Below, piece by piece: positions 18,672 through 56,169 of a DNA stretch of 64,000 nucleotides. Origin of the DNA: an uncultured Gemmatimonadales bacterium (GTDB taxonomy: Bacteria; Gemmatimonadota; Gemmatimonadetes; JACCXV01; JAHWKZ01); contig CAZUIY010000327.1 of assembly GCA_964619975.1 (NCBI GenBank), forward strand, positions 1,706-65,705. Direction: 5' to 3'. Under the pieces are notes generated by a model. That model was not told where the DNA came from. It saw nothing but the letters and a program-made list of their open reading frames with translations, and made no database searches. Each line of letters starts with the position of its first letter. Positions within the stretch are counted from its first letter, which is position 1. Position numbers and translations under genes: made by a program.

Positions 18672-20486
18672 TCAGTACCCCCCTCCGTTTCCGTTGTTCC
18701 CGCTCCCGTTCTGCCCGTTGTTGGACCCCATCATCCGGTCCATCATCATTCGCGTCCGGTTCTGCCGGGTCGGGCCCGGAGCGCGATTGACCCGCTCGTA
18801 TGTGCGCGTGGTCTGCGCCGGCTTCGGCATCTCCTGGCCGGGTTCCACCGGCCCGCGCTGGCCCTCGTCGCTGGCCCCCTGCAACTGCATCACGTCGAGG
18901 ATTTCCGGCGTGTTGCTGTACTTGGCGAATAGCCGCGTGAACTCGATCATGTCGGGGGCCACGCCCTGCTCGGCGTAGAGCGGGATCGACGGCATGGCCA
19001 CTTGCGTGAACCACGTCATCAGCGTCTGCAACCGCTGGCCCGGCGACTGGTAGGTCATCGAGTAGGGCTCGACCGTGAAGTTGTAGTCGAGCCAGTCGCC
19101 CTCGGTTTCTTCGGCCGAGAACACGCCAGCGACCGCCGCGTTGGTCACGCCCGGTACCTGCTTGACGATTGGAATGCGGATCGTGGGGTCGTGCCACATC
19201 CACCAGCCCAGCGACTCCATCACGCCCTGCGTGAAGGCCACCGTCTGCTCCTGCATGTCCTCCATGCGACGGCTTGCCGCCTGCGCGAGGATCTGGTCCT
19301 GGCCGATGGTTTCGGACTGCGGCGAAATGCCTGCCTGCAACGCGAGGTTGCCGGACATCTCGGAGAACTTCTCCTCCGAGGCCATCGCGAACATCATCAG
19401 TTCCTGGCTGACGCCGCCGAACTGAGCCTCGACGAAGTCCTGCGCGCGCGGGCTGTTGACCGCTACCGCGTCACCGTCATCGCTGGTCTTGATGTTCTTC
19501 GCGTCGCGGTCATTGCCGCGCATGAACAGGCCGAGTCGCTTGAGACGCTTGGCCTGCCGCTCGAGCTTGCGCCACATCGCGTTGACCGACAGGTGCAGAT
19601 CAAACACGGTCGACAGCGGCGGCACGGGCATCACCTGGCCCGGCATCGGCGTGTAGCGCAGGAAGTGGAACGGGCCACGCTCGGGACCATCCCATTCGTA
19701 GTCGCGGACGATCTTGCCGGGGTGGTTGACCGGCACGGTAATCATCCGGCCGACGCCACCTTCCGACGGCAGATAGAACTCCCACACCTCCACATAGTCG
19801 AGGAAGCCGTCGTCGTGGGAACTGTAGTTGCTGCGACCGATGAGGTTGGCACGCTCCTCGCCGGACTCATCGAATGGACCCTGCGAGCTGGCCGTCAGGC
19901 AGTCCTTGTTCGTGTACAGATCGCTGTCCATCACGTAGTCGAGCGGCAGCATCTGGCGGTAACCGCAGTAGCTGAACTGCTCGGGACGGCGCGCGCCCGT
20001 GTCGTGTACCCAGTCGTCAAACGGGATCGGGTCGGCGAACGGCTGACCCACGTCGTGCATGACGCCGCCGATTTCCACCTGGGGGCCATCGGCCATGCCA
20101 ACGCGCATGATGGCCATGCCCATCAGGGCTTCCATGACCACCTCGCGGATCATGTCGCCCAGCGTGATTTCCCTCGACAGGTGATTCAGCGCCAACTCGA
20201 GTTCGGCCGCCTGCATCTTGAGGTCGCGGTGCGGCGTGTAGATCAGGACCGCCGGGTGGTTGGCCACCAGACCGCGGCTGTACGTGTTGAGGTACAGCTC
20301 CACGAGGTTGACCGGCACCGGCTTTTCAGCCGCATTCGGGCCATAGTGGCGCCCCGCGTACTGCTTCCGCGCTTCACGGGAGAACGCCCGGAACGGCTCC
20401 AGGTTCCGGCGGTCACGCTCTTGCGCACGCGCCAGATTGGCGAGCATCCGCTCCTGCTTCCGGTCAGTCTTGGCGTAGGTCACCAT
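18672..20486 (-). CDS. Portal protein (604 aa)
   Basis: Start MVTYAKTDRKQE at 20486 overlaps the TerL stop by 7 nt. Size and position immediately after TerL fit a portal. Gly/Asn-rich C-terminal tail. Confidence 0.75.
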   Translation of the reverse strand: MVTYAKTDRKQERMLANLARAQERDRRNLEPFRAFSREARKQYAGRHYGPNAAEKPVPVNLVELYLNTYSRGLVANHPAVLIYTPHRDLKMQAAELELALNHLSREITLGDMIREVVMEALMGMAIMRVGMADGPQVEIGGVMHDVGQPFADPIPFDDWVHDTGARRPEQFSYCGYRQMLPLDYVMDSDLYTNKDCLTASSQGPFDESGEERANLIGRSNYSSHDDGFLDYVEVWEFYLPSEGGVGRMITVPVNHPGKIVRDYEWDGPERGPFHFLRYTPMPGQVMPVPPLSTVFDLHLSVNAMWRKLERQAKRLKRLGLFMRGNDRDAKNIKTSDDGDAVAVNSPRAQDFVEAQFGGVSQELMMFAMASEEKFSEMSGNLALQAGISPQSETIGQDQILAQAASRRMEDMQEQTVAFTQGVMESLGWWMWHDPTIRIPIVKQVPGVTNAAVAGVFSAEETEGDWLDYNFTVEPYSMTYQSPGQRLQTLMTWFTQVAMPSIPLYAEQGVAPDMIEFTRLFAKYSNTPEILDVMQLQGASDEGQRGPVEPGQEMPKPAQTTRTYERVNRAPGPTRQNRTRMMMDRMMGSNNGQNGSGNNGNGGGY

Positions 20487-22354
20487 GCTCCGTAAGCGGG
20501 TTCGGTTGATTCTTCTTGCAGAACACGCCACGCGAACGACCCGACCGGCGGCTCGAAGTCGATAACGTCGTCTTCCGCAGCCCGTACGGAGCCGCTGATG
20601 ATGTCCTTGACGGCGTGCCACGCGACGGCATCCGCAATCACGCGGTCGCCGTGGTTGTCACCGGCTCCCGACAGGTCATCGGTGGTGGCCGCAGAGGAGT
20701 GCTCGATGCGGCCCTTGGCGAACCGGTACGCCCGGCATTCGTTCAGCGCCGCCTCGGACGGGTTGAGGAACCGGCCCACGGACAGGGCTTCGGCGTAGTC
20801 CTCCAGCAGCGGCTGCTTCGTGGTTTTGGTGGACCACCAGCCGACGTTGTCCGTCACTCGCCGCGAGATGCTGTTCGTGTTCTCGCGGTAGTGGAGGTTC
20901 GAGTATCCGCGGTCCAGCACCTCGTCGCGGAACGACTGGCCGGGTCCGTTGCACTCCCAGATCAGGTAGGCATCGTGGAACATCCGGCAGAGAGCGATCA
21001 CGTCCTTGGCGAAGGCGTGCGGCTTGAGGTAGGGCGTGACGTACTCGCCCACCTTCTCGCCGGTCCGGGCATTGACGACCGAGGCGCAGGAATTGGAGGC
21101 GCCGGTGCCGTTCGAGATGTCGCAGCCGACGACGTACTCACCGGGCGGAACCTTCCCGCCGCGCTCGTACTCGCACCACAGGTAGAGCGCGCCGGCCTCG
21201 TTGTGCGTGATGCCCTGCGGTTCGAGCGTGTGAGGATCGCGCCGGATGTTGCCCCGGTGACGGGCCACCGTCGCGTGGTTGGCCTTGAGCTGTTCGATGA
21301 TCTTCAGATCGAACAGCGGCCGACCCGACCCGTGGTAGTCCAGGTCCAGCTGCTCGGCGACCAGCCGCGGCGACCGCACCCGGCACTCGCGGTCGTACCA
21401 GGGGGAGCGCACGCGGTACGACCCCGGCATGTCCAGCACGAACTCGTAGTTGTCCGGGTAGCGATAGTCCTCATCGAGGATCTTCAGTTCGCCGTTCTCG
21501 TCTGCCGTGTAGAGGCCGGCGCTCTTGCGAGGGTCGGTGGACCAGTGCAGGGAGATGCTGATGATCGGAGAGTTGGGCTCCTCCGACCGCTGCTTCATGT
21601 CGTAGAAGGCGTTGTCGACGCCCTTGGGCGTGGAGACGAACACGCAGTTGTTCGTCACGTCGAACACGGAGCCGAGGGCTTCGGTGCCCATCCCCGGCTT
21701 CACGTCATCGAACGTCGCGAACTCGTCCATCATGACCATCGTGCGACGGTCACCGCGGCCGACGTTGCCCGACGTGGCCTCGCCGTCCACGACGGTGCGC
21801 GTGTCCGGGTTGTAGCGGTGGAATGCCTGCCGACAGTCGTGATTGTCCGGGTCGTAAAGCGGCGTCAGCCAGCGAGGCGCCCACTCCCCGAGGAAATCGA
21901 ACTTCCAGAACAGGGACTTCGGGTTGCCCGGCTTCTCGACGTAGTCTGCGGTGCGCGAGACGAACAGGTAGGACTCGTCCACGTAGAAGTTGAATCGCCA
22001 CCGCTTGAAGGCGATCGGCAGCCACGATCCGCCTGTGTCGCGTGACTTCTCCAAGAAGACGTGGTTGCGCCCGAGATTGTCCCGTAGCTTGATCAGAACG
22101 TCATTCTGCGCATCCCACGTGATGAAGGGGACGATCTGGTAGCCCGGTTTGAGGCGCGGGTCGTAGGTCCAGGCGAACACGTTCACGTAGAACAGGACAT
22201 CCCGCTGGCACATGCACCGGAGAACCGCCTGCTCCTCGGGGTTCCCGCGGGCGGACTCCAGCACGTAGCGACGGAAGTGAAGGTTTGCCTCTTCGTCCGT
22301 CGGCACCAACTGGCGGTAGTACTCGCTCGTGTACTCGCTCTTGTAGGTCGTCAC
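20480..22354 (-). CDS. terL: Terminase large subunit (624 aa)
   Basis: GTG 22354 in a GTGA overlap, preceded by GGAGGA. Walker-A-like KSRDTGGS and Walker-B-like MVMMDEFA. C-terminal nuclease-sized domain. Confidence 0.85.
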   Translation of the reverse strand: MTTYKSEYTSEYYRQLVPTDEEANLHFRRYVLESARGNPEEQAVLRCMCQRDVLFYVNVFAWTYDPRLKPGYQIVPFITWDAQNDVLIKLRDNLGRNHVFLEKSRDTGGSWLPIAFKRWRFNFYVDESYLFVSRTADYVEKPGNPKSLFWKFDFLGEWAPRWLTPLYDPDNHDCRQAFHRYNPDTRTVVDGEATSGNVGRGDRRTMVMMDEFATFDDVKPGMGTEALGSVFDVTNNCVFVSTPKGVDNAFYDMKQRSEEPNSPIISISLHWSTDPRKSAGLYTADENGELKILDEDYRYPDNYEFVLDMPGSYRVRSPWYDRECRVRSPRLVAEQLDLDYHGSGRPLFDLKIIEQLKANHATVARHRGNIRRDPHTLEPQGITHNEAGALYLWCEYERGGKVPPGEYVVGCDISNGTGASNSCASVVNARTGEKVGEYVTPYLKPHAFAKDVIALCRMFHDAYLIWECNGPGQSFRDEVLDRGYSNLHYRENTNSISRRVTDNVGWWSTKTTKQPLLEDYAEALSVGRFLNPSEAALNECRAYRFAKGRIEHSSAATTDDLSGAGDNHGDRVIADAVAWHAVKDIISGSVRAAEDDVIDFEPPVGSFAWRVLQEESTEPAYGAW

Positions 22355-22563
22355 CCGCGGTCCTCCGCAGGCGACTCCCGCCGCTCGTTCATGTTCGGAC
22401 GGGCATCCTCCAGGATCGTCCACACACAATGCGGGTGATCCCAGCGGACTAGATTGCCGTCGAACAGGGCGTATTCGCCGTCATGCCCGTCGTGCTCCAC
22501 GAGGCTGTCGATCTCGCGAACCCACCACAGCTTCTCGTCGTACTGCACCAGCACCCACATCAT
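22351..22563 (-). CDS. Small hypothetical protein (70 aa)
   Basis: Start MMWVLVQYDEK at 22563 in an ATGA overlap with the upstream stop. Confidence 0.55.
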   Translation of the reverse strand: MMWVLVQYDEKLWWVREIDSLVEHDGHDGEYALFDGNLVRWDHPHCVWTILEDARPNMNERRESPAEDRG

Positions 22564-47309: not shown

Positions 47310-47914
47310 TCGGCGCCTCCCCTCTTATGGCGGCCGTTCCGCTCGTGGTAGCCCTTGTGACACCGATGGCAGAGAACCGTCAGGTCGGCCGGGTGCTCGT
47401 CTCCTAGCCGCTCGTAGGTCGTGTGGTGGACGTGCAGTTCCAGGTTGCCAGCCCCGCACAGCTGGCAGCGGTAGTAGGCCCGCTTGAGGGCTTCCTTTCG
47501 CTTCAAGTGCCAGTGCGGGGTTTGCAGATACTCCGCGTACGGCAACTCGTTCAGCGGCGTGGGCGGTGGGCGTCTGTCCATCTCCCGCAACCATGCCCTG
47601 TTTTCGGCCAACTCCCGCGCTTCGGCTTGCTCCTTCTCCTCTGCCTCGCGCCGCTTCTTCTCGCGCATGATGGCAAGGATTTCTTCTCTGGTTGCGTTCT
47701 CCGGGTACCCGAGCATCTCGCAAAAGAACTTGCTTCTGGTGAGCGAGAACACCCGATCGGCAGCCTCCTCCTCCAGTTGACGCTCGTGTTCTTCTCGCTT
47801 GCGGCGCTGGGCTTCTTTGCGTTCAGCAAGCTCCTCGGGGGTTTCCTCGTGGTTGATGGCGGCCTTCAACTTCGCGAGAAAGGCCGAGAACTTTTCTTGC
47901 TTCTCGTTGCTCAC
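47306..47914 (-). CDS. HNH-motif protein (202 aa)
   Basis: GTG 47914 in a GTGA overlap. C-terminal CQLCG...LHVHHTTYERLGDE...DLTVLCHRCH..H. Confidence 0.6.
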   Translation of the reverse strand: MSNEKQEKFSAFLAKLKAAINHEETPEELAERKEAQRRKREEHERQLEEEAADRVFSLTRSKFFCEMLGYPENATREEILAIMREKKRREAEEKEQAEARELAENRAWLREMDRRPPPTPLNELPYAEYLQTPHWHLKRKEALKRAYYRCQLCGAGNLELHVHHTTYERLGDEHPADLTVLCHRCHKGYHERNGRHKRGGAE

Positions 47915-49137
47915 GACGCTCCCCCCTCCCGGCGGCCGTCCACCTCCACACGCACACGCTCGCCCCACTGGCTGGCCATGTAGGCCCGCACGAACAGCGC
48001 CCCTACGGCTGGGACGATGGCGTTGCCGGCAAGACGCAGCGCAGCCACGCGACCGCGAACGGTCCCAACTGCAACCAAAGGCTGAAGCCCGGATTCAAGC
48101 ACTGGCGAGGGGATTCGGCGGTGTCGTCCGTCGGCGCAGGCGATCCAGTGGTCGCCCCAGTCATTTGCGCTGTCGTCGCCAGATCGTTGTTCGCGCCCTT
48201 GCGCTCGGCTTCTCGCATCGCGCCTTCGGGCGTCCGCTCGTTCTTCTCGCCGTCCGTTGCTCGCGGCGTCGCCCATCCCGCGAGGCTCACTTGCCGGCCC
48301 AGCAGCGCGTTGATCGGCGTGTTCTCCAGCGTCGCGCCGCCGTCCTTGTGGTCGCGGGTCGTCGGCGTTGCCCATCCCGCTGCTTTGCTGACGGCGTCCA
48401 CCAGCGTGTCTCCGGCGTAAATCCCCGTTGGTGGAATCTTGTTTCGCTTTGCCGTCGAGTTTCGGGCTGATCGACTGTCCCCCACCATCGGCGTCGGCCA
48501 CGCCGCTAGCTGCTCCACCGCGTTCAGGCTCACTGTCGCTTTGCTGCCGTCCGGCCGTCTGCCGGTGGGGCTGGCATCCTTCGCCATCTGCGATCCATCC
48601 GCGTTCCCCTTTGTTGGCGTCGGCCATCCGGTCGGCAACCCACCAGAGCCGCTGTCGCTGGTGCGGCGCGCCGACGCTGCAAGCTGGGAGACGGGAAGCC
48701 CCGACCCGGTAAAGCTCTGACTCCAGGTCAGCGAGTATTCCGGTGAGCCATTCAAATCCACCAGCTCCACTAACTTGCTCGCCAATCGCAACGAGAGGGC
48801 GACACTCGCAGATGAGGCGTAGTGCCTCCGGCCAGAGGTGCCGTTCGTCGTCGGCGCCTTGCTGCTTGCCCGCGACACTGAACGGCTGGCAGGGGCAAGA
48901 GGCTGTCCAAACAGGTCGGTCGTCGGGCCAGCCGGCGAGTCGCAGGGCGAGGGACCATCCGCCAAGCCCGGCAAACAGGTGCACTTGCGTGTATCCGGCG
49001 AGGTCGGCTGGCTGGATGTCTGCGATTGATCGGCCATCCACGTCTCCCGGTGCAATCAGCCCCTCCGCGATCAGCCGGCGCAGTGTCTCGCAGGCGTGCG
49101 GGTCGATGTCGTTGTAGTAGGCGGTGGGTTCAGGCAT
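47911..49137 (-). CDS. dcm: DNA cytosine-5 methyltransferase (408 aa) with a low-complexity central linker
   Basis: Start MPEPTAYYNDID at 49137. Motifs FAGLGG (I), PCQPFS (IV), GEQV (VI), QRQR (VIII) and GNAIVP (X) all lie in this frame. Confidence 0.75.
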   Translation of the reverse strand: MPEPTAYYNDIDPHACETLRRLIAEGLIAPGDVDGRSIADIQPADLAGYTQVHLFAGLGGWSLALRLAGWPDDRPVWTASCPCQPFSVAGKQQGADDERHLWPEALRLICECRPLVAIGEQVSGAGGFEWLTGILADLESELYRVGASRLPACSVGAPHQRQRLWWVADRMADANKGERGWIADGEGCQPHRQTAGRQQSDSEPERGGAASGVADADGGGQSISPKLDGKAKQDSTNGDLRRRHAGGRRQQSSGMGNADDPRPQGRRRDAGEHADQRAAGPASEPRGMGDAASNGRREERADARRRDARSRAQGREQRSGDDSANDWGDHWIACADGRHRRIPSPVLESGLQPLVAVGTVRGRVAALRLAGNAIVPAVGALFVRAYMASQWGERVRVEVDGRREGGAS

Positions 49138-49864
49138 CGGCCACCTCCACGCGCTCGAACCCCAGCACCCACACCCACGGCGAGTCCGCCCACGCGCACC
49201 CCGGCCGCTTGCCGTTGATGGCGTCCCACGCGCGGGCGAACGCCACGCGGTGCAGGTTGCCCGGCTCCAACCGGCCGTATCCCTCGATGCCCAGGTGTCC
49301 GCGAGCGCCGTTGGCGGTGATGAACGCCTCGCGTTCGGGGTCGACGCCTTCGGCCTGCGCATCCGCCTCGCTGATCTCCGTTACCCGCTCCACGCGCACG
49401 TCTGTGATGCGCAGGGTCAGGCGCGACGCCCAGCGCGGCATGTGGATGGGCGACTTCCACGGCCCAACCCGAATGCACCGCACGGTTCCGTCGGCCGCCA
49501 CGTAGTTGAAGCAGTCATGTTCGTCACACCCGGCTCGGTAAGCGACGATCTGCCGGCCGTCGTCCATGTCCAGCACGGCCCATGTCTCCCGCACCCAAAG
49601 CATGTCGCCCGGCGCCCCATACGGGCAGCGCCACGCCTGCTCGCCGTCCAGCGTCGAGACGCCGAACACCGGATCGCCGGGATGCGCGATGCCGCCGGCA
49701 CCGACCACGGTCGGGTGGTACCACTTGGCCGACGTGAGGGCGCAGTCGCCGTCCGGCTGCGGCTTCACCACGCGCCGCGTCATCGTCTTGCGGCCGTCGA
49801 GGATCGCGCAGATGTTGGCGCCGCCAAAGATGATCGGGCGGCTCTTGGTGGTCGCGTCACCCAC
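49130..49864 (-). CDS. ASCH-like domain protein (244 aa)
   Basis: IIFGGANICAILDGRKTMTRRV...GDMLWVRETW...MPRWASRLTLRITDVRVERV pattern recalled from phage ASCH-type proteins. Confidence 0.45.
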   Translation of the reverse strand: MGDATTKSRPIIFGGANICAILDGRKTMTRRVVKPQPDGDCALTSAKWYHPTVVGAGGIAHPGDPVFGVSTLDGEQAWRCPYGAPGDMLWVRETWAVLDMDDGRQIVAYRAGCDEHDCFNYVAADGTVRCIRVGPWKSPIHMPRWASRLTLRITDVRVERVTEISEADAQAEGVDPEREAFITANGARGHLGIEGYGRLEPGNLHRVAFARAWDAINGKRPGCAWADSPWVWVLGFERVEVADA

Positions 49865-50697: not shown

Positions 50698-50930
50698 GCG
50701 CCATCCCCTTCCGCGCCGTCGCCGGCCTGCTCGCGCATCTCGGCCAGTTGCTGGTGCAGCGCGTCACGCTCCCACGCCAGCCCGTCCCGCTCGCGAATCA
50801 GCCGCATCACGGTTTGCGCGTGTGGCGTCAGCGACTTGTCGCCAAAGGCCCGCGTCGGCAGCACGCACCACGCGGCGTCGTCCCACAATGCTTGTTCGTC
50901 GGCGGGTCGCCGGGGCTGGTCAGCGGGCAT
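50694..50930 (-). CDS. Small protein (78 aa)
   Basis: Start MPADQPRRPADE at 50930, inside junction cassette copy 1. Confidence 0.55.
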   Translation of the reverse strand: MPADQPRRPADEQALWDDAAWCVLPTRAFGDKSLTPHAQTVMRLIRERDGLAWERDALHQQLAEMREQAGDGAEGDGA

Positions 50931-51303
50931 CGTCGCCTCCGTCGTTGGAGGCGGCCTGCTGGCGCTGGAGCCGGTCAATCTCGGCCGCAATCAGGGCACC
51001 GGCCCGCACGAGATCATGCAGCCTGTCCCCCTTGGTCTTCGGATGCCCTTGCACCCACTCCTCTTCGTATCTCGTCAGCCTTGTCAGAAATGGCCAAGGA
51101 TGACTGAATTGAATCCCGCCCTCGTGAATCGCGATCTTGGAGTAGTCCGGCGCCGCATACGAAATGGCGGCCAGCGCAAGCTGCCCCTTGACGTGCTGGT
51201 CGTCGTGCTCTGGCGTCCAGCCCTCGACAGACTGCTGCCGCTCGCGCTCGCGTGCGATCAGTTGGGCGCCGGTCAGGTTGTCGGTGGGTTGCTGGTCAGG
51301 CAT
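50920..51303 (-). CDS. Hypothetical protein (127 aa) ending in AASNDGGDDAR
   Basis: Start MPDQQPTDNL at 51303. Confidence 0.6.
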   Translation of the reverse strand: MPDQQPTDNLTGAQLIARERERQQSVEGWTPEHDDQHVKGQLALAAISYAAPDYSKIAIHEGGIQFSHPWPFLTRLTRYEEEWVQGHPKTKGDRLHDLVRAGALIAAEIDRLQRQQAASNDGGDDAR

Positions 51304-51514
51304 CGTCGCCTCCAATCTCGTGTCCGAAATGGGCGGTCAACAAGCCGTCCCGCTCCCGCTTTTTGCGCTCCACGGCCATCTGCCAGACGAGCAGGGACAA
51401 CATCCCGGCCATCGGCACATTCCTCTCGGCCGACTCTCGCTTCAAGGCATCCAGAAGATGATGCGGGAGGTCGCACACCACCCTCGTTCGGTCGCCGGTG
51501 TGATCAGCAGGCAT
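51296..51514 (-). CDS. RHH-like small protein (72 aa)
   Basis: ORF track. RVVCDLPHHLLDALKRESAERNVPMAGMLSLLV. Confidence 0.5.
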   Translation of the reverse strand: MPADHTGDRTRVVCDLPHHLLDALKRESAERNVPMAGMLSLLVWQMAVERKKRERDGLLTAHFGHEIGGDDA

Positions 51515-52142
51515 CGTCGCCTCCGTCGTTGGAGGCGGCCTGATACACGCGCGGCACCATCAGGCCGGCTGCGCGATCGCAGTAGAACTGCCACTCATCG
51601 AGGAACGACGCTTTCGCCTCGTCCGGCCCCCACGGCTCGATCTCGATGCCGTCGATGGCGTCCGGAACATCCCAGTCCCCGCGGTCGGCCATGCCGAACT
51701 CGCGGGCCTCGGTGGCCAGGATCGCGTTGTCCACCGCCTGGATGATGTTGGCGAAGGGATACGCGAGCCTGAACTGGCGGAAGATGCTCGCCGCCAGCGC
51801 CTTCTCCAACGCCTTGTAGCCGGGCAGCATCAGCTTCAACGGGCGCGGAATGTCGGCCATGTAGGCTTCGGCCGCGTCGTGCAGCATAGCGGCCTTGGCC
51901 AGCCACGCCTCGCCGGTGCGCTCCATCACCTGTTCGGCGACCAGCACCGAATGCTGGGCGACGGAGTAGAACGTCGGGCACTGGCCAGCAAACCGGCAGA
52001 TATGCGCAAGCCCGTGGGCGATGTCCTCGATGGAGTAGCGGTTCTCGCGCCGCCGCTCGCCGAAGTAGACGCGCCGCCCGGATGCCGTGGCGATCCAGCC
52101 TTCGTCGCGGGCCGGCTGGTTGGTGGGTTGATGGTCACTCAT
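51504..52142 (-). CDS. HD-domain phosphohydrolase, YfbR-like 5'-deoxynucleotidase type (212 aa)
   Basis: Start MSDHQPTNQ at 52142. SVAQHS...MLHDAAEAYMADIP gives the H...HD...E...D pattern. Confidence 0.6.
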   Translation of the reverse strand: MSDHQPTNQPARDEGWIATASGRRVYFGERRRENRYSIEDIAHGLAHICRFAGQCPTFYSVAQHSVLVAEQVMERTGEAWLAKAAMLHDAAEAYMADIPRPLKLMLPGYKALEKALAASIFRQFRLAYPFANIIQAVDNAILATEAREFGMADRGDWDVPDAIDGIEIEPWGPDEAKASFLDEWQFYCDRAAGLMVPRVYQAASNDGGDDAC

Positions 52143-52407
52143 GGCTGCCTCCGTCGTTGGAGGCGGCCTCCTGGCGTCCCACAATGTCGCAGCGGCGGAT
52201 TTCGCGCGCCCCGGTGTCGCGCTTCAAGCGCGCAACGTCGCCCTCGATGTCGCTCACGATCACCCGACCGTCGGCCACATAGAGGTAGCCGCAGTAGACC
52301 GGGTAGTCGTCCGCGAGAACGGGCTCGTCGTAGTTGTCTGGTGTGGGTTGCGCCGCGTCGGTCTTGTTGACGGACGGATCGCCGCTAGGTAGCGTGGGCT
52401 CAGTCAT
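52135..52407 (-). CDS. Small protein (90 aa) ending in AASNDGGSHE
   Basis: ORF track. Confidence 0.6.
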   Translation of the reverse strand: MTEPTLPSGDPSVNKTDAAQPTPDNYDEPVLADDYPVYCGYLYVADGRVIVSDIEGDVARLKRDTGAREIRRCDIVGRQEAASNDGGSHE

Positions 52408-52571
52408 GACGACTCCTCTTCAGTCGTTGTGATCAGGGCTGCGGGAAGGGGTGAGAGCCTTGCCGTAGCCCGCCTGCTCGCGGAGGGATTGGCCCCCTCC
52501 GCTACGAGCAGTTTACGACGAACGCGGCGGGCTAGGCAAGGCAGTATTTTCGGTGGTCTGGTGGCAGTCAT
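52404..52571 (-). CDS. Doubtful small ORF (55 aa)
   Basis: ATGA overlaps at both ends, but low GC3 and an Arg-rich product. It may be a non-coding spacer. Confidence 0.25.
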   Translation of the reverse strand: MTATRPPKILPCLARRVRRKLLVAEGANPSASRRATARLSPLPAALITTTEEESS

Positions 52572-54730
52572 GCGAACAGCCTCCGTTGTGAGCCGAGGCG
52601 CTTCTTCGCGATGGCGCAATACTCGGGCGACAGCTCGATCAAGGCCGCGCGGCGCAGCAGGCTCTCGGCAACAACGCCCGTAGTGCCGCTGCCGCCGAAC
52701 GGGTCGAGCACGGTGCAGGGGATCGGGTCGCCGGCATCACACGCGCAGGACGGCGACCAGCCGGTGGTGCTCGGCGGTGCGTAAGAGTTCCACTCCTTCT
52801 GTCCGCCGCCCAAGTTCCGGCGCTCGCCGCCGTCCGGTCGTCCGTTGTTGCGTGCCGCCTTTGTGTAAGCGTCTCCTTTACCGCTCTCCACCTCCCGCAC
52901 CCACGGCGCGCCGCACGCCGGGCAGCAACCGCGTTCGCTCGTGCCGGCCTTGATGCACGGCTCGACAAGGCGCGTCGGGAAGGTGTTCCCGGTGATGAAG
53001 ATTCGGCCGTTGCGCCGTGCCAGCCATGTGCCGAGAGGCAGCTTCGGGCACCACACGATCCCGCTGTACCTTTCAACCGCGGGCGGCGCCCCGGCTCCGG
53101 CAGTCCCGCGGAACGACCGTGTCTTGTGCTTGGTCAGGTAGCACGTCCATAGATCGCCAGGAGCCATCCGTGGGCTGACGCACGCGGCAAGGCCGCACCT
53201 GACAGCCAAGGCTTGAAACATGTCGATCTGGTCGGCGCCCCTCTGTACGAAACAGGCCCGACCGTCTTGCCGAGTGTGACCGTCTCCGTGAATCAGCCCA
53301 CGCAAAAGCGCTTCGCACCTATCGTGCGACCACATGAGTGCGCTGACCGGGATGCGCTTCTTTGGTGCCAATTCACGGAGCCGCATGGCTCCGTAGCCAG
53401 CGACGCGATATGCATTCTGGACTGACGGGCGATCTTTCCACAGGCGTTCGGCTTGCGCCCGTGTCCACTCGACTCCGGTCTGCCGCAACAGTTCTTCGAT
53501 TCGTCGGCAGTGTGTCGGGTTGGCAGATTCGGACTGGTAGATTTCGACCGCGAGGGACGACTTGTTCTCGTATCCTTCTGCTATGTACCAGCCAAGCAAT
53601 TCAGCCCACTCCAGCGGCAAGGACGAGTCGCCGCAAGGCTCCCACTCGGCTACCACCGGCACCCCGTGACTGGCCTTCAGTTCGTCGGCACGCACGACCA
53701 CAGGCTTCTGATACTCGCGCGTCTTGTTGTGGCGAAGCTGAACGACGCACCTGTGGTTCGGCGTCAGAACCATTCGAAGGTCGCGGTTGCGTGCAACAAC
53801 CATTTCTTGGTCGGTCACGCTGTATCTGGCCACGTCCTCGACCGCGCCCCACGAGAGGCGCTGCGAGTCAATATCGAACTGCGCGGCAAGCGAGCCAGGC
53901 TTGATCTCGTCGTGTCGCTTCCAGCCTTCCGATGTAAGACACTCCGTGTCGGCATCGACGCACGCGAAGTGCGCGTCGGGGAACGGCTCGGACGGGATGG
54001 TCCACACGTCGCGGAGGTTGCGGCCGGTTGCTTCGGCCAGCGATTGGGCCGAGTGTCGATCCCCTCCAATCCGGCCCTTTGGCCCCGGCCATCGGTCTAG
54101 CCTGCCGGCGCCATCCTCCCGCACAGCCTCCGCGTCGAAGTAGTAGCGAGGCGCTTTCGCTAGCAGGAACAGGTACTCGTGCGCCTTCGTCGGCCGGTCG
54201 CGGACGGACTCCGGCATCGGTGATGGCTTGTGCCAGATGATGTCGCTGCGCAGGTACCAGCCAGCGGCACGCAGGGCGAAGGCGACCATCCACGGCTGTC
54301 CGATGAGGTCCTTTGACTTCAATCCGCCAACAACCGTGTTCATCTTTTGCGCGTGCCCTGACTTGAGAGTTTCGCGGTATTTTCCGTTGCTCCCATTGGC
54401 TCCATTCAGGCCGCTTGTTCGACCAACCCCCTCGACATTGCCCGGCGGCGAACTGGCGTAGCTGTCCCCCAGATTCAGCCACAGCGTGCCGTCGTCGCGC
54501 AGCACGCGGCGCACCTCATCAAACACCGCAACCAACCGCGCGACCCATTCGTCTACGGTCTCCTCCAGACCAATCTGCCCGTCCACGCCGTAGTCTCGCA
54601 GCCCCCAATACGGCGGCGACGTGACGACGCAGTGAACCGACGCGGCCGGCATCGCGCGCAGCACGTCGATGCAGTCGCCGTTGAAAATGCGCAGGCCATC
54701 CCGCTCGTAGTAGGGTGTCGGCAGGCTCAC
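52568..54730 (-). CDS. Beta-class N4/N6 DNA methyltransferase interrupted by an intein (720 aa precursor; about 394 aa after splicing)
   Basis: GTG 54730 in a GTGA overlap after GGAGGTGGGG. Motif IV TSPPYW near the N-terminus and motif I DPFGGSGTTG near the C-terminus. The conserved H-x-A-x-FP block is split as HFA / TFPTRL. Confidence 0.8.
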   Translation of the reverse strand: MSLPTPYYERDGLRIFNGDCIDVLRAMPAASVHCVVTSPPYWGLRDYGVDGQIGLEETVDEWVARLVAVFDEVRRVLRDDGTLWLNLGDSYASSPPGNVEGVGRTSGLNGANGSNGKYRETLKSGHAQKMNTVVGGLKSKDLIGQPWMVAFALRAAGWYLRSDIIWHKPSPMPESVRDRPTKAHEYLFLLAKAPRYYFDAEAVREDGAGRLDRWPGPKGRIGGDRHSAQSLAEATGRNLRDVWTIPSEPFPDAHFACVDADTECLTSEGWKRHDEIKPGSLAAQFDIDSQRLSWGAVEDVARYSVTDQEMVVARNRDLRMVLTPNHRCVVQLRHNKTREYQKPVVVRADELKASHGVPVVAEWEPCGDSSLPLEWAELLGWYIAEGYENKSSLAVEIYQSESANPTHCRRIEELLRQTGVEWTRAQAERLWKDRPSVQNAYRVAGYGAMRLRELAPKKRIPVSALMWSHDRCEALLRGLIHGDGHTRQDGRACFVQRGADQIDMFQALAVRCGLAACVSPRMAPGDLWTCYLTKHKTRSFRGTAGAGAPPAVERYSGIVWCPKLPLGTWLARRNGRIFITGNTFPTRLVEPCIKAGTSERGCCPACGAPWVREVESGKGDAYTKAARNNGRPDGGERRNLGGGQKEWNSYAPPSTTGWSPSCACDAGDPIPCTVLDPFGGSGTTGVVAESLLRRAALIELSPEYCAIAKKRLGSQRRLFA
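52985..53962 (-). mobile_element. Intein (326 aa) with LAGLIDADG homing-endonuclease domain
   Basis: Begins with Cys (CVDADTECLTSEGW). Block-B-like LTPNH. Two LAGLIDADG-type motifs (LLGWYIAEGY, LLRGLIHGDG). Ends ...RIFITGN followed by Thr(+1). Removal restores the HFA-TFPTRLVEPCI methyltransferase motif. Confidence 0.75.
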
Positions 54731-55299
54731 GTCCCCACCTCCCCCGGCTCCACGCGCTCGGCCGCCGGGCGCTCCGTCCCGCAGTCGGGCGTCTCGCGGT
54801 GCAGGCGGTACGTGCCGGATACGCCGTCGTCCTCGATCAGGCGCCGGACGCACTCGGCGATGCGCGCCACATCAACGGCAATCGCCCCCCAGCCAACAGG
54901 CCCGCCGAGGTCGATGGCCTCCAGCCCGCATCGCACCGCGTACTGCACGGCGTCAAGCAGTTCCTCGTAGCAGTCCCGCGCAGCGTCGCGCCCGTCGTGC
55001 GTGTGCAGCGGCTGCCCGTACCGCTCACGGCCGACGCGATCACGCTCGGCCACGTCATCGGCAAGGCTGTTGAGGTTGATGTCGTCCAGCAACTGCATGA
55101 CGGCGGGCGTCACCGGCTGGCTGCGGGCGGTGTTGACGGGGGTTGGTTGGCTGGCAATCGGCTTGGCGTCCAGCGCATCCAGCGCAGCATCCAATGTAGC
55201 GATCAGATCGGCTGCCAGTCCGGGCGGCGCCAGCATCATGATGTGCGGCGCTAGTTCGCGCGTGGCTTGGATCACGGCTTCGCGTTGGTCAGTCATCAT
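54727..55299 (-). CDS. Hypothetical protein (190 aa)
   Basis: ORF track. Confidence 0.65.
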   Translation of the reverse strand: MMTDQREAVIQATRELAPHIMMLAPPGLAADLIATLDAALDALDAKPIASQPTPVNTARSQPVTPAVMQLLDDINLNSLADDVAERDRVGRERYGQPLHTHDGRDAARDCYEELLDAVQYAVRCGLEAIDLGGPVGWGAIAVDVARIAECVRRLIEDDGVSGTYRLHRETPDCGTERPAAERVEPGEVGT

Positions 55300-55555
55300 C
55301 GCTCCCCTCGTATTGCTGGCACCCCTGATGCTCGAACGTCAGCAGCCCGCAGCGATGTGACGCCGGATTCCAGCAGACGCCCCAATCCGCCCCGCGCCGG
55401 CCTTCCAACGTGTGGAAGAATCGGCAGCCGGTCGAGCAGTCCGGGTACGCCTGATCGCCGTGCTCCCAGCGGGTCACATCGCCCCACGGGTCGTAGTCGC
55501 CGGGCAGTTTCTTGCAGGCCGCCCATAGCTGGTCGTGTGTCGCTTCGGCGGTCAT
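55289..55555 (-). CDS. Small Cys-rich protein (88 aa)
   Basis: Start MTAEATHDQLW at 55555 in an ATGA overlap. Confidence 0.6.
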   Translation of the reverse strand: MTAEATHDQLWAACKKLPGDYDPWGDVTRWEHGDQAYPDCSTGCRFFHTLEGRRGADWGVCWNPASHRCGLLTFEHQGCQQYEGSDDD

Positions 55556-56016
55556 GCGCGTGCTCCTTCGGTCACCTTCGGCTGCGCCCATTCGCGACCG
55601 GGCTCTTTGATCGGCAACACCTCGACAATCACGCCCGGCGCCTCGCCCTGCGCGCCGGTCACCTTCTCCACGGTCAGCACCGCGATCTGGCTGTCGTCCA
55701 TCCACAGCACGCCCGTCCCGGCGTCCTTGACGCATTTCGCGATGTTGTCGGCGTCGGGTCGCTTCGTGTGCCATTCGCGCGGTCGCGGCTCGCGCTTGCG
55801 ATACCGGCTCTTTGGCATCGTGAAGATCGCCGTGATGGTCACCGCCAGCGGGCCATCGAGAACCGCACCGTTAGCGCGCTGCGCCAGCATGTGCTGCTGC
55901 GCGGTCGCCTTCCAGTTGCGCGACTTGGCCGGGTCGTACACGCGGGCGCGTCCGTTGACCGTCGTGGCCTTCGGTCGCCCTTGCGCGACTGGTTCGCCGG
56001 GTATCTCGATCTTCAC
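55552..56016 (-). CDS. rusA: RusA-family Holliday junction resolvase (154 aa)
   Basis: GTG 56016 after AGGAG. GEPVAQGRPK...KRPDADNIAKCVKDAGTGVLWMDDSQI. Confidence 0.7.
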   Translation of the reverse strand: MKIEIPGEPVAQGRPKATTVNGRARVYDPAKSRNWKATAQQHMLAQRANGAVLDGPLAVTITAIFTMPKSRYRKREPRPREWHTKRPDADNIAKCVKDAGTGVLWMDDSQIAVLTVEKVTGAQGEAPGVIVEVLPIKEPGREWAQPKVTEGARA

Positions 56017-56169
56017 GGTCGCTCCTGTGCAGCCTGCGACGCCGCGCGCAACGCGGCATCCTGTCTCTCGGCGGGGCCTGTCCTGCTTGTGATAGGCCGG
56101 CGGGGCCTCGAACCCCTGCCGCGAGCCACCCCCGAGGCTCACGGCTGCCCTGTGCTACCGGCCTGGTGC

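Follow-up and report, generated by a model that had tools for sequence, protein, structure and literature searches.

A probable class 1-type LAGLIDADG intein in the H-x-A-T-F-P motif of a phage-borne beta-class DNA methyltransferase

Inteins are known to interrupt the DNA methylases of phages. In 2016, 11 inteins of phage N6_N4 methylases were reported in the DNMT-1 and DNMT-2 groups (Kelley et al., PMC5050341), and the 327-amino acid (aa) methylase intein of Dorothy_75 and Akhila_67 was analysed in detail in 2023 (Gosselin et al., PMC9957025). A 2025 survey lists the methylase host as previously reported and contains three methylase-intein groups (bioRxiv 10.1101/2025.01.02.630785). Here, a 326-aa insert encoded at positions 52985..53962 (minus strand) of a 64,000-nucleotide (nt) stretch, hereafter the window, is described in contig CAZUIY010000327.1 of an uncultured Gemmatimonadales bacterium (assembly GCA_964619975.1). 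It is very probably a functional class 1-type LAGLIDADG intein, located in the H-x-A/T-F-P motif (the slash marks the insertion point) of a phage-borne beta-class methyltransferase. A first-pass annotation, made from the letters alone, had regarded a DNA-modification enzyme as an unexpected host for a phage intein, a view that the reports of 2016, 2023 and 2025 contradict. Phage methylase inteins of this family and their Gly-Asn ending are thus already known.

The precursor gene, an intein-containing beta-class N6_N4 DNA methyltransferase, lies at 52568..54730 on the minus strand, stop codon included, and codes for 720 aa from a GTG start. Its open reading frame (ORF) runs from the first possible start, a GTG at 54853, down to 52568 and would then comprise 761 aa. 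The GTG at 54730 is likely the true start: a GGAGG Shine-Dalgarno sequence is found 7-11 nt upstream, and the 720-aa form is identical to a record of the protein collection (P0003). The whole protein matches the PF01555 (N6_N4_Mtase) model of Pfam with an E-value (E) of 2.8e-38 and 132.5 bits. Removal of the insert in silico raised the score to 148.6 bits (E 3.5e-43) and increased the coverage, the best stretch going from profile position 167 with the insert to 182 without it. The order of the motifs, TSPPYW (motif IV) followed by DPFGGSGTTG (the S-adenosylmethionine-binding motif I), is that of beta-class N6_N4 enzymes, and the relatives of the joined exteins in the PDB are all of the beta class, namely the TTHA0409-like 2zie, CcrM, M.PvuII and an N4-cytosine methyltransferase. 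In 2zie, the sequence DHPAPFP aligns to AHFATFP of the window methyltransferase, so the insert interrupts a motif conserved in the class. The SPPY form of motif IV, with a Ser, is typical of N4-cytosine enzymes. The window methyltransferase is of this SPPY type and possibly has N4-cytosine specificity.

The N-extein (256 aa; 53963..54730, minus strand) holds motif IV and the motifs that follow it and ends in ...PDAHFA; its alignment to homologues without the intein continues as far as HFA. The C-extein (138 aa plus stop; 52568..52984, minus strand) opens with Thr+1 in TFPTRLVEPCI, continues with a four-Cys cluster and then DPFGGSGTTG, and is likewise aligned with intein-less homologues. The cluster, GCCPACGAPW ... 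GWSPSCAC, follows the HxATFP motif and precedes motif I. Among 21 aligned homologues, no change is seen at C603, C606 or C662 (P0003 numbering), and C664 is nearly invariant. From its sequence, this four-Cys pattern resembles a zinc-binding ribbon, placed where the methylase subfamily presumably has its target-recognition region.

Translation of 52985-53962 gives CVDADTECLT...RNGRIFITGN, preceded by ...PDAHFA and followed by TFPTRLVEPCI, and the intein-less junction at the DNA level would read ...CACTTCGCG/ACCTTCCCG... A search of 5.8 billion proteins with the precursor protein recovered two kinds of homologues, those of about 720 aa with the insert and those of about 400 aa without it, whose exteins are 52-61% identical. 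Ten homologues of about 400 aa align without any gap across HFA/TFP. In ten others of about 720 aa, the insert is found at the identical point, opening with CVD..TE.LT and closing with FITGN before a T. The insert is therefore in frame, absent from collinear homologues and placed inside a conserved motif of its host. These results bear out most of what the first-pass annotation had proposed. The boundaries of the 326-aa insert in the 720-aa ORF are exact by translation, and the motifs that it quoted (VVTSPPYWGL, DPFGGSGTTG, LTPNH, LLGWYIAEGY, LLRGLIHGDG and the penultimate Gly) are all present. The spliced product, put at roughly 43 kDa, is calculated at 42.9 kDa. Excision does regenerate the conserved H-x-A-T-F-P motif, as seen from the contiguity of intein-less homologues at the junction and from the gain in Pfam score and coverage. 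Moreover, the comparison with intein-less homologues that it had suggested as a check gave contiguous flanks, which takes away the objection that the insert might be an ordinary domain of these enzymes.

The identity of the insert as a LAGLIDADG-type intein is supported by its modelled fold, by profile matches and by conserved residues. It is organised as a HINT domain split by a two-motif LAGLIDADG domain. An AlphaFold2 model built on a 28-member family alignment has a mean predicted local distance difference test score of 95.7 and a predicted template modelling score of 0.92. Searched with Foldseek against the PDB, the model found endonuclease-containing inteins in all of its 15 best matches (E 6e-16 to 3.5e-10, probability 1.00), including TliVMA (6e-16), PhoVMA, PI-SceI, PI-PfuI and PI-PkoII. 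LAGLIDADG endonucleases of the I-DmoI type came next, followed by HINT-only domains. The HINT fold is thus recovered by both the model and its structural matches. In the same way, a 35-member family profile matched TliVMA inteins (E 5e-8), PI-PkoII, the AceL NrdHF intein and PI-MtuI in the PDB, and intein chains were matched again when the search was repeated with 28 members.

The insert belongs to a very large family that is mostly metagenomic and viral. In an exhaustive HMMER search with the insert alone, 6514 cluster representatives were matched at E <= 1e-3, and 224 passed E <= 1e-30. Of the representatives, 150 were listed, and almost every one of them matches residues 1-326 within a larger protein. 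Among these 150 and the matches of the homologue search taken together, the insert is matched from residue 1 to 326 inside 208 larger proteins, an agreement well outside what chance would give; they form the set of 208 full-length members. Positions are given below in block numbering, according to our own alignment to published block definitions. The key residues of the window intein are Cys1, T67-x-x-H70-R71 in block B, W304-C305 in block F and T324-G325-N326 in block G. In 208/208 members, Cys1, His B:10, Gly G:6 and Asn G:7 are invariant and the +1 position holds Thr, Ser or Cys, while Thr B:7 is conserved in 98%, Arg B:11 in 98%, Cys F:4 in 99.5% and Thr G:5 in 99.5%. The window copy has Cys1, T67-P-N-H70, N326 and Thr+1, the residues expected for splicing. 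By definition, Cys1 and an intact T-x-x-H place an intein in class 1, which is where the sequence puts this one.

The LAGLIDADG endonuclease domain is predicted at about residues 116-255 of the intein (53200..53617, minus strand) from the helix-strand pattern of the model, structural matches and a weak LAGLIDADG_3 match. The first motif is LLGWYIAEG, with E129 as its acidic residue, and the second is LIHGDG, with D227; Lys202 is conserved as well. Among the 208 members, the acidic residues of the two motifs are kept in 99% and 98% and Lys202 in 93%. The predicted pattern over residues 117-264 is the alpha-beta-beta-alpha-beta-beta-alpha arrangement of two-motif enzymes, and Foldseek matched this domain to I-DmoI, I-Tsp061I and I-SceI. 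Taken over the family, this conservation makes both the splicing and the endonuclease activities look to be under selection.

The penultimate residue of the window intein is Gly325 in place of the usual His at G:6, from which the first-pass annotation had supposed that the splicing chemistry may be atypical. The idea of an unusual or compromised copy is not supported, since Gly is invariant in the 208 members and inteins with a Gly ending do splice (PMC5050341, PMC7891396). The penultimate His is common in inteins and is not obligatory. Mycobacteriophage class 1 inteins often lack it, and in a Gly-penultimate intein of a mycobacteriophage recombination directionality factor (RDF) splicing is complete and becomes slower when the Gly is changed to His (PMC5050341). 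To judge from the aligned sequences, Gly is a fixed character of the family and no lesion of the window copy. The structure of the AceL NrdHF intein also has a T-G-N ending, and both canonical histidines are absent (Hoffmann et al. 2020, PMC7891396). In this intein, the G145H change abolishes activity, the R69A change slows splicing and the distance between the Arg at B:11 and the C-terminal scissile carbonyl is 2.5 Å (PMC7891396). In the family profile, block B of AceL, VSPNHRM, aligns to LTPNHRC of the window intein. Because AceL NrdHF is the closest endonuclease-less intein and shares PNHR and T-G-N, the conserved block-B Arg71 most likely stands in for the missing penultimate His, by analogy.

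Among the described systems close to it are the mycobacteriophage methylase inteins, with which the window intein shares homology from end to end (tblastn E 6e-31 to 1e-24, about 30-33% identity), nearly the same size (327 versus 326 aa), a phage PF01555 host and a LAGLIDADG endonuclease. Akhila_67 and Atcoo_55 have the same blocks, with Cys1/C-L-T-x-D, LTPNHR, VWC and FITGN. Their inteins, however, are inserted at WLYG/SGFPKS, with Ser+1, in a DPPY-type methylase, whereas the window intein lies at HFA/TFP, with Thr+1, in an SPPY-type one. The class 3 split intein AceL NrdHF (6ZGQ) is the best endonuclease-less match by sequence (E about 2-3e-6) and among structural matches. It resembles the window intein in PNHR with Arg B:11, in Cys F:4, in T-G-N and in the lack of canonical histidines. 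AceL NrdHF is phage-derived and resides in the beta subunit of ribonucleotide reductase (RNR); it has Ala1, is naturally split and carries a free-standing GIY-YIG endonuclease gene between its halves. In contrast, the window intein has an invariant Cys1, is contiguous and bears an in-frame LAGLIDADG domain. The Gly-penultimate RDF intein mentioned above, that of Bethlehem gp51, is a phage class 1 intein whose terminal Asn likewise follows a Gly (PMC5050341); its host, a metallophosphoesterase-type RDF, is unlike that of the window intein, and it is by their ending that the two are compared. Finally, TliVMA (7QSU), PI-SceI (1VDE), PI-PfuI (1DQ3) and PI-PkoII (2CW7) combine HINT and LAGLIDADG domains and superpose with template modelling scores of 0.6-0.7 on the query length. 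These archaeal and yeast inteins are only 12-15% identical, have a penultimate His-Asn and an Asp at F:4, and carry extra DNA-recognition regions that the window intein lacks.

Within the family, 183/208 members are inserted at H[FY][AS]/[TS]... of methyltransferases, and the remaining 25 at other junctions. HFA/TFP of SPPY-type PF01555 methylases is thus a heavily used homing site. No description of it was found in the literature, and it differs from the sites of Akhila_67 and Atcoo_55. Among deposited phage genomes, inteins that match the insert over its whole length occur in several hosts. Among them are the mycobacteriophage DNA methylases RedBird_75, Bobi_73 and Akhila_67 (33% identity) and Atcoo_55, which is annotated "DNA methylase + intein". 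Further phage hosts are C1-cluster nucleotidyltransferases, a Gordonia terminase, RNR beta subunits, a portal protein and RtcB. Of note, some proteins contain more than one such element. A methyltransferase of 1181 aa (P0166) bears two inteins of the same family, one at ...CGAWKG/SLGLEPT and one at HFA/TFP, the former site being the G-x-x-GLE motif right after motif IV. Several other matches show 2-6 intein-like stretches, for example P0232 (1867 aa).

The distribution of the insert among homologues is patchy. In a quick maximum-likelihood tree of the exteins of 76 homologues, 43 have the insert and 33 are without it, with no gap or replacement, and intein-bearing and intein-free alleles are interleaved. 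Presence and absence require at least 12 changes, at least four of them forced by well-supported branches, figures that describe patchiness and not rates. The nearest relatives of the window protein on this tree are intein-free. In base composition, the intein (GC content 0.619) is below its exteins (0.651 and 0.691), at the 4th percentile of same-size windows, and the GC content at third codon positions shows the same trend (0.72 versus 0.79 and 0.83).

A protein query spanning the junction found no match across HFA/intein in 50,697 deposited phage genomes, and when the gene was compared with deposited phages by megablast no close relative was returned, the only match being one of 188 nt (80.6%) in Burkholderia phage BgManors32. 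A search for related loci with a single protein query also found nothing. A degenerate DNA pattern of the junction, encoding NG..FITGNTFP, had two matches in 185,579 species-representative genomes, in one metagenome-assembled genome (MAG) and in Streptomyces chiangmaiensis, and 11 matches in IMG/VR viral contigs. The one IMG/VR match that was read has AHFA/CVDEET...FITGN/TFP, the same arrangement as in the window. In Streptomyces chiangmaiensis, the pattern is borne by contig NZ_BAAAYZ010000148.1 (L005). A protein of 862 aa from this species (P0039), named "DNA methyltransferase" at NCBI, has this intein at the same site, on which its name is silent; the Streptomyces chiangmaiensis copy may be a prophage copy. 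Another intein-bearing homologue (P0066) carries the NCBI name of a methyltransferase of a Methanoregula sp. MAG, and a viral contig of 44,908 bp in IMG/VR (L012, IMGVR_UViG_3300037067_008509) bears the junction pattern. If the contig of P0066 and L012 are identical, an archaeal virus or provirus carries the allele as well.

Taken as a class 1-type intein, the insert would act as follows. The 79.6-kDa precursor would be translated and would probably be inactive because its conserved motif is split. Cys1, activated by Thr67 and His70 of block B, would form a thioester at the HFA/C junction, the N-extein would pass to Thr+1, and Asn326 would cyclise so that the exteins become joined, with Arg71 of block B replacing the penultimate His as in AceL NrdHF. 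The products would be the 42.9-kDa enzyme and a free intein calculated at 36.7 kDa. The endonuclease domain would cut intein-less alleles at the site coding for HFA/TFP, and repair would copy the intein in. Such homing into intein-less alleles would result in the patchy spread among homologues.

Several observations weigh against this account. Splicing and homing are deduced from sequence and predicted structure, and the family lacks the penultimate His and, by our own reading of block F, the block-F His also, so that the catalyst of Asn cyclisation is assumed by analogy. As a single-sequence phmmer query, the insert had no match among PDB chains. The first-pass annotation had proposed Hint, intein and LAGLIDADG profiles as a check. 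On the window copy, the LAGLIDADG part was borne out weakly, by LAGLIDADG_3 alone (E 0.002, below the gathering score), and the Pfam intein and Hint models stayed below threshold; with Pfam and NCBIfam together, the insert gave the sub-threshold LAGLIDADG_3 match and matches to intein-containing RNR or Tes models, equally sub-threshold. The extein tree came from a short search on a sample picked by similarity to an intein-bearing query. Lastly, the invariant Cys F:4 and Thr G:5 are hallmarks of class 3, so that a residue other than Cys1 might be the first nucleophile.

This last point leads to an unlikely alternative that nevertheless deserves weighing, in which splicing is class 3-like, with Cys305 (F:4) attacking the N-terminal junction first, or with the two cysteines redundant, and Cys1 being dispensable or regulatory. 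The conservation of Cys F:4 and Thr G:5 (99.5% each) and a +1 Thr or Ser in 98% of the members are class 3 signatures (PMC2807308), and in 10/25 members at non-methylase sites the WCT triplet is made complete by a Trp at B:12. Moreover, AceL NrdHF, the nearest endonuclease-less intein, is class 3 by experiment and shares PNHR and T-G-N (PMC7891396). Set against this, Cys1 is invariant in 208/208 and the class 1 activating pair Thr B:7 and His B:10 is intact, whereas in typical class 3 inteins the N-terminal nucleophile is lost and the Thr at B:7 is often missing too (PMC2807308, PMC6195587). Surveys put phage methylase inteins in class 1 (PMC5050341, bioRxiv 10.1101/2025.01.02.630785), and class 3 inteins occupy four hosts only (bioRxiv 10.1101/2025.01.02.630785). 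The window copy itself carries C305 and T324, but it has a nucleophile at position 1 and Cys72 at B:12, where members at methylase sites have C, T, V, N or M and not Trp. Class 3 inteins starting with Ser or Cys were reportedly described by Tori and Perler in 2011. Because the invariant Cys1 coexists with Cys F:4, Thr G:5, Gly G:6 and Arg B:11, and in some members with Trp B:12, one can also imagine, quite speculatively and with rather little probability, that the family is a present-day intermediate that links class 1 to class 3 and splices via the block-F Cys despite its Cys1, or that Cys1 and Cys F:4 form a redox switch that times the activation of the methyltransferase in infection.

Two further explanations deny that the window copy is a working mobile element. 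It could be a decayed or domesticated intein that neither splices nor homes, kept as a permanent domain or leaving the methyltransferase inactive, in effect a pseudogene. The homologue nearest to the window copy is 57% identical, so that close relatives are lacking and recent homing cannot be demonstrated. The Pfam models for inteins miss the window copy, and it is without the canonical penultimate His. However, the reading frame is unbroken across 720 codons, all family-invariant splicing residues and both acidic residues of the endonuclease are kept, and Gly is a feature of the family and not a sign of decay. In addition, the insert breaks a motif that is contiguous in every intein-less homologue, so selection for the unspliced protein is improbable. 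On the strength of the intact frame, the invariant residues, the split motif and the family-wide Gly, decay was rejected as very unlikely. An ordinary lineage-specific domain of the methyltransferase, such as a target-recognition module, would fit with the presence of the insert at the same position in 43 of the 76 tree homologues. Yet the other 33, close homologues as they are, do wholly without it, the same domain recurs in full in unrelated proteins as well as at different sites, and its predicted fold is HINT plus LAGLIDADG; this reading was rejected as well and retains next to no probability.

With the class 1-type intein as the preferred reading, the gene should be annotated as an intein-containing DNA methyltransferase with a mature product of 394 aa, and predictions of methylome or host range should rest on the spliced sequence. 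What is new is limited to the insertion site, its abundance in uncultured viral data and the family signature tied to an AceL-type active site; current understanding is unchanged. The signature of Cys1, Arg (B:11), Cys (F:4) and T-G-N joins class 1 phage methylase inteins to the AceL-type class 3 active site, and the family offers a natural variant set for the question of class 3 origin.

The contig that bears the window is 69 kb long and belongs to a fragmented MAG (447 contigs, 72% complete), in which no second copy of the intein was found. It is phage-like, as first supposed, its neighbouring genes matching phage families. They include a terminase large subunit at 20480-22429 (weak phage-family match), a deoxynucleoside monophosphate phosphatase (dNMP phosphatase) at 51504-52184 and a RusA at 55552-56142, both with phage-family matches. 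A second DNA methyltransferase, of the C5 type, is encoded at 47911-49362 on the minus strand (PHROG 363, E 1.5e-67). It lies 3.2 kb from the intein-bearing gene, and the element thus encodes at least two orphan methylases. The link to anti-restriction that the first-pass annotation had drawn would be a reasonable one for orphan phage methylases. Lastly, three consecutive small genes at 50920-52407 (minus strand) end in ...AASNDGGDDAR, ...AASNDGGDDAC and ...AASNDGGSHE, which is nearly one and the same peptide.

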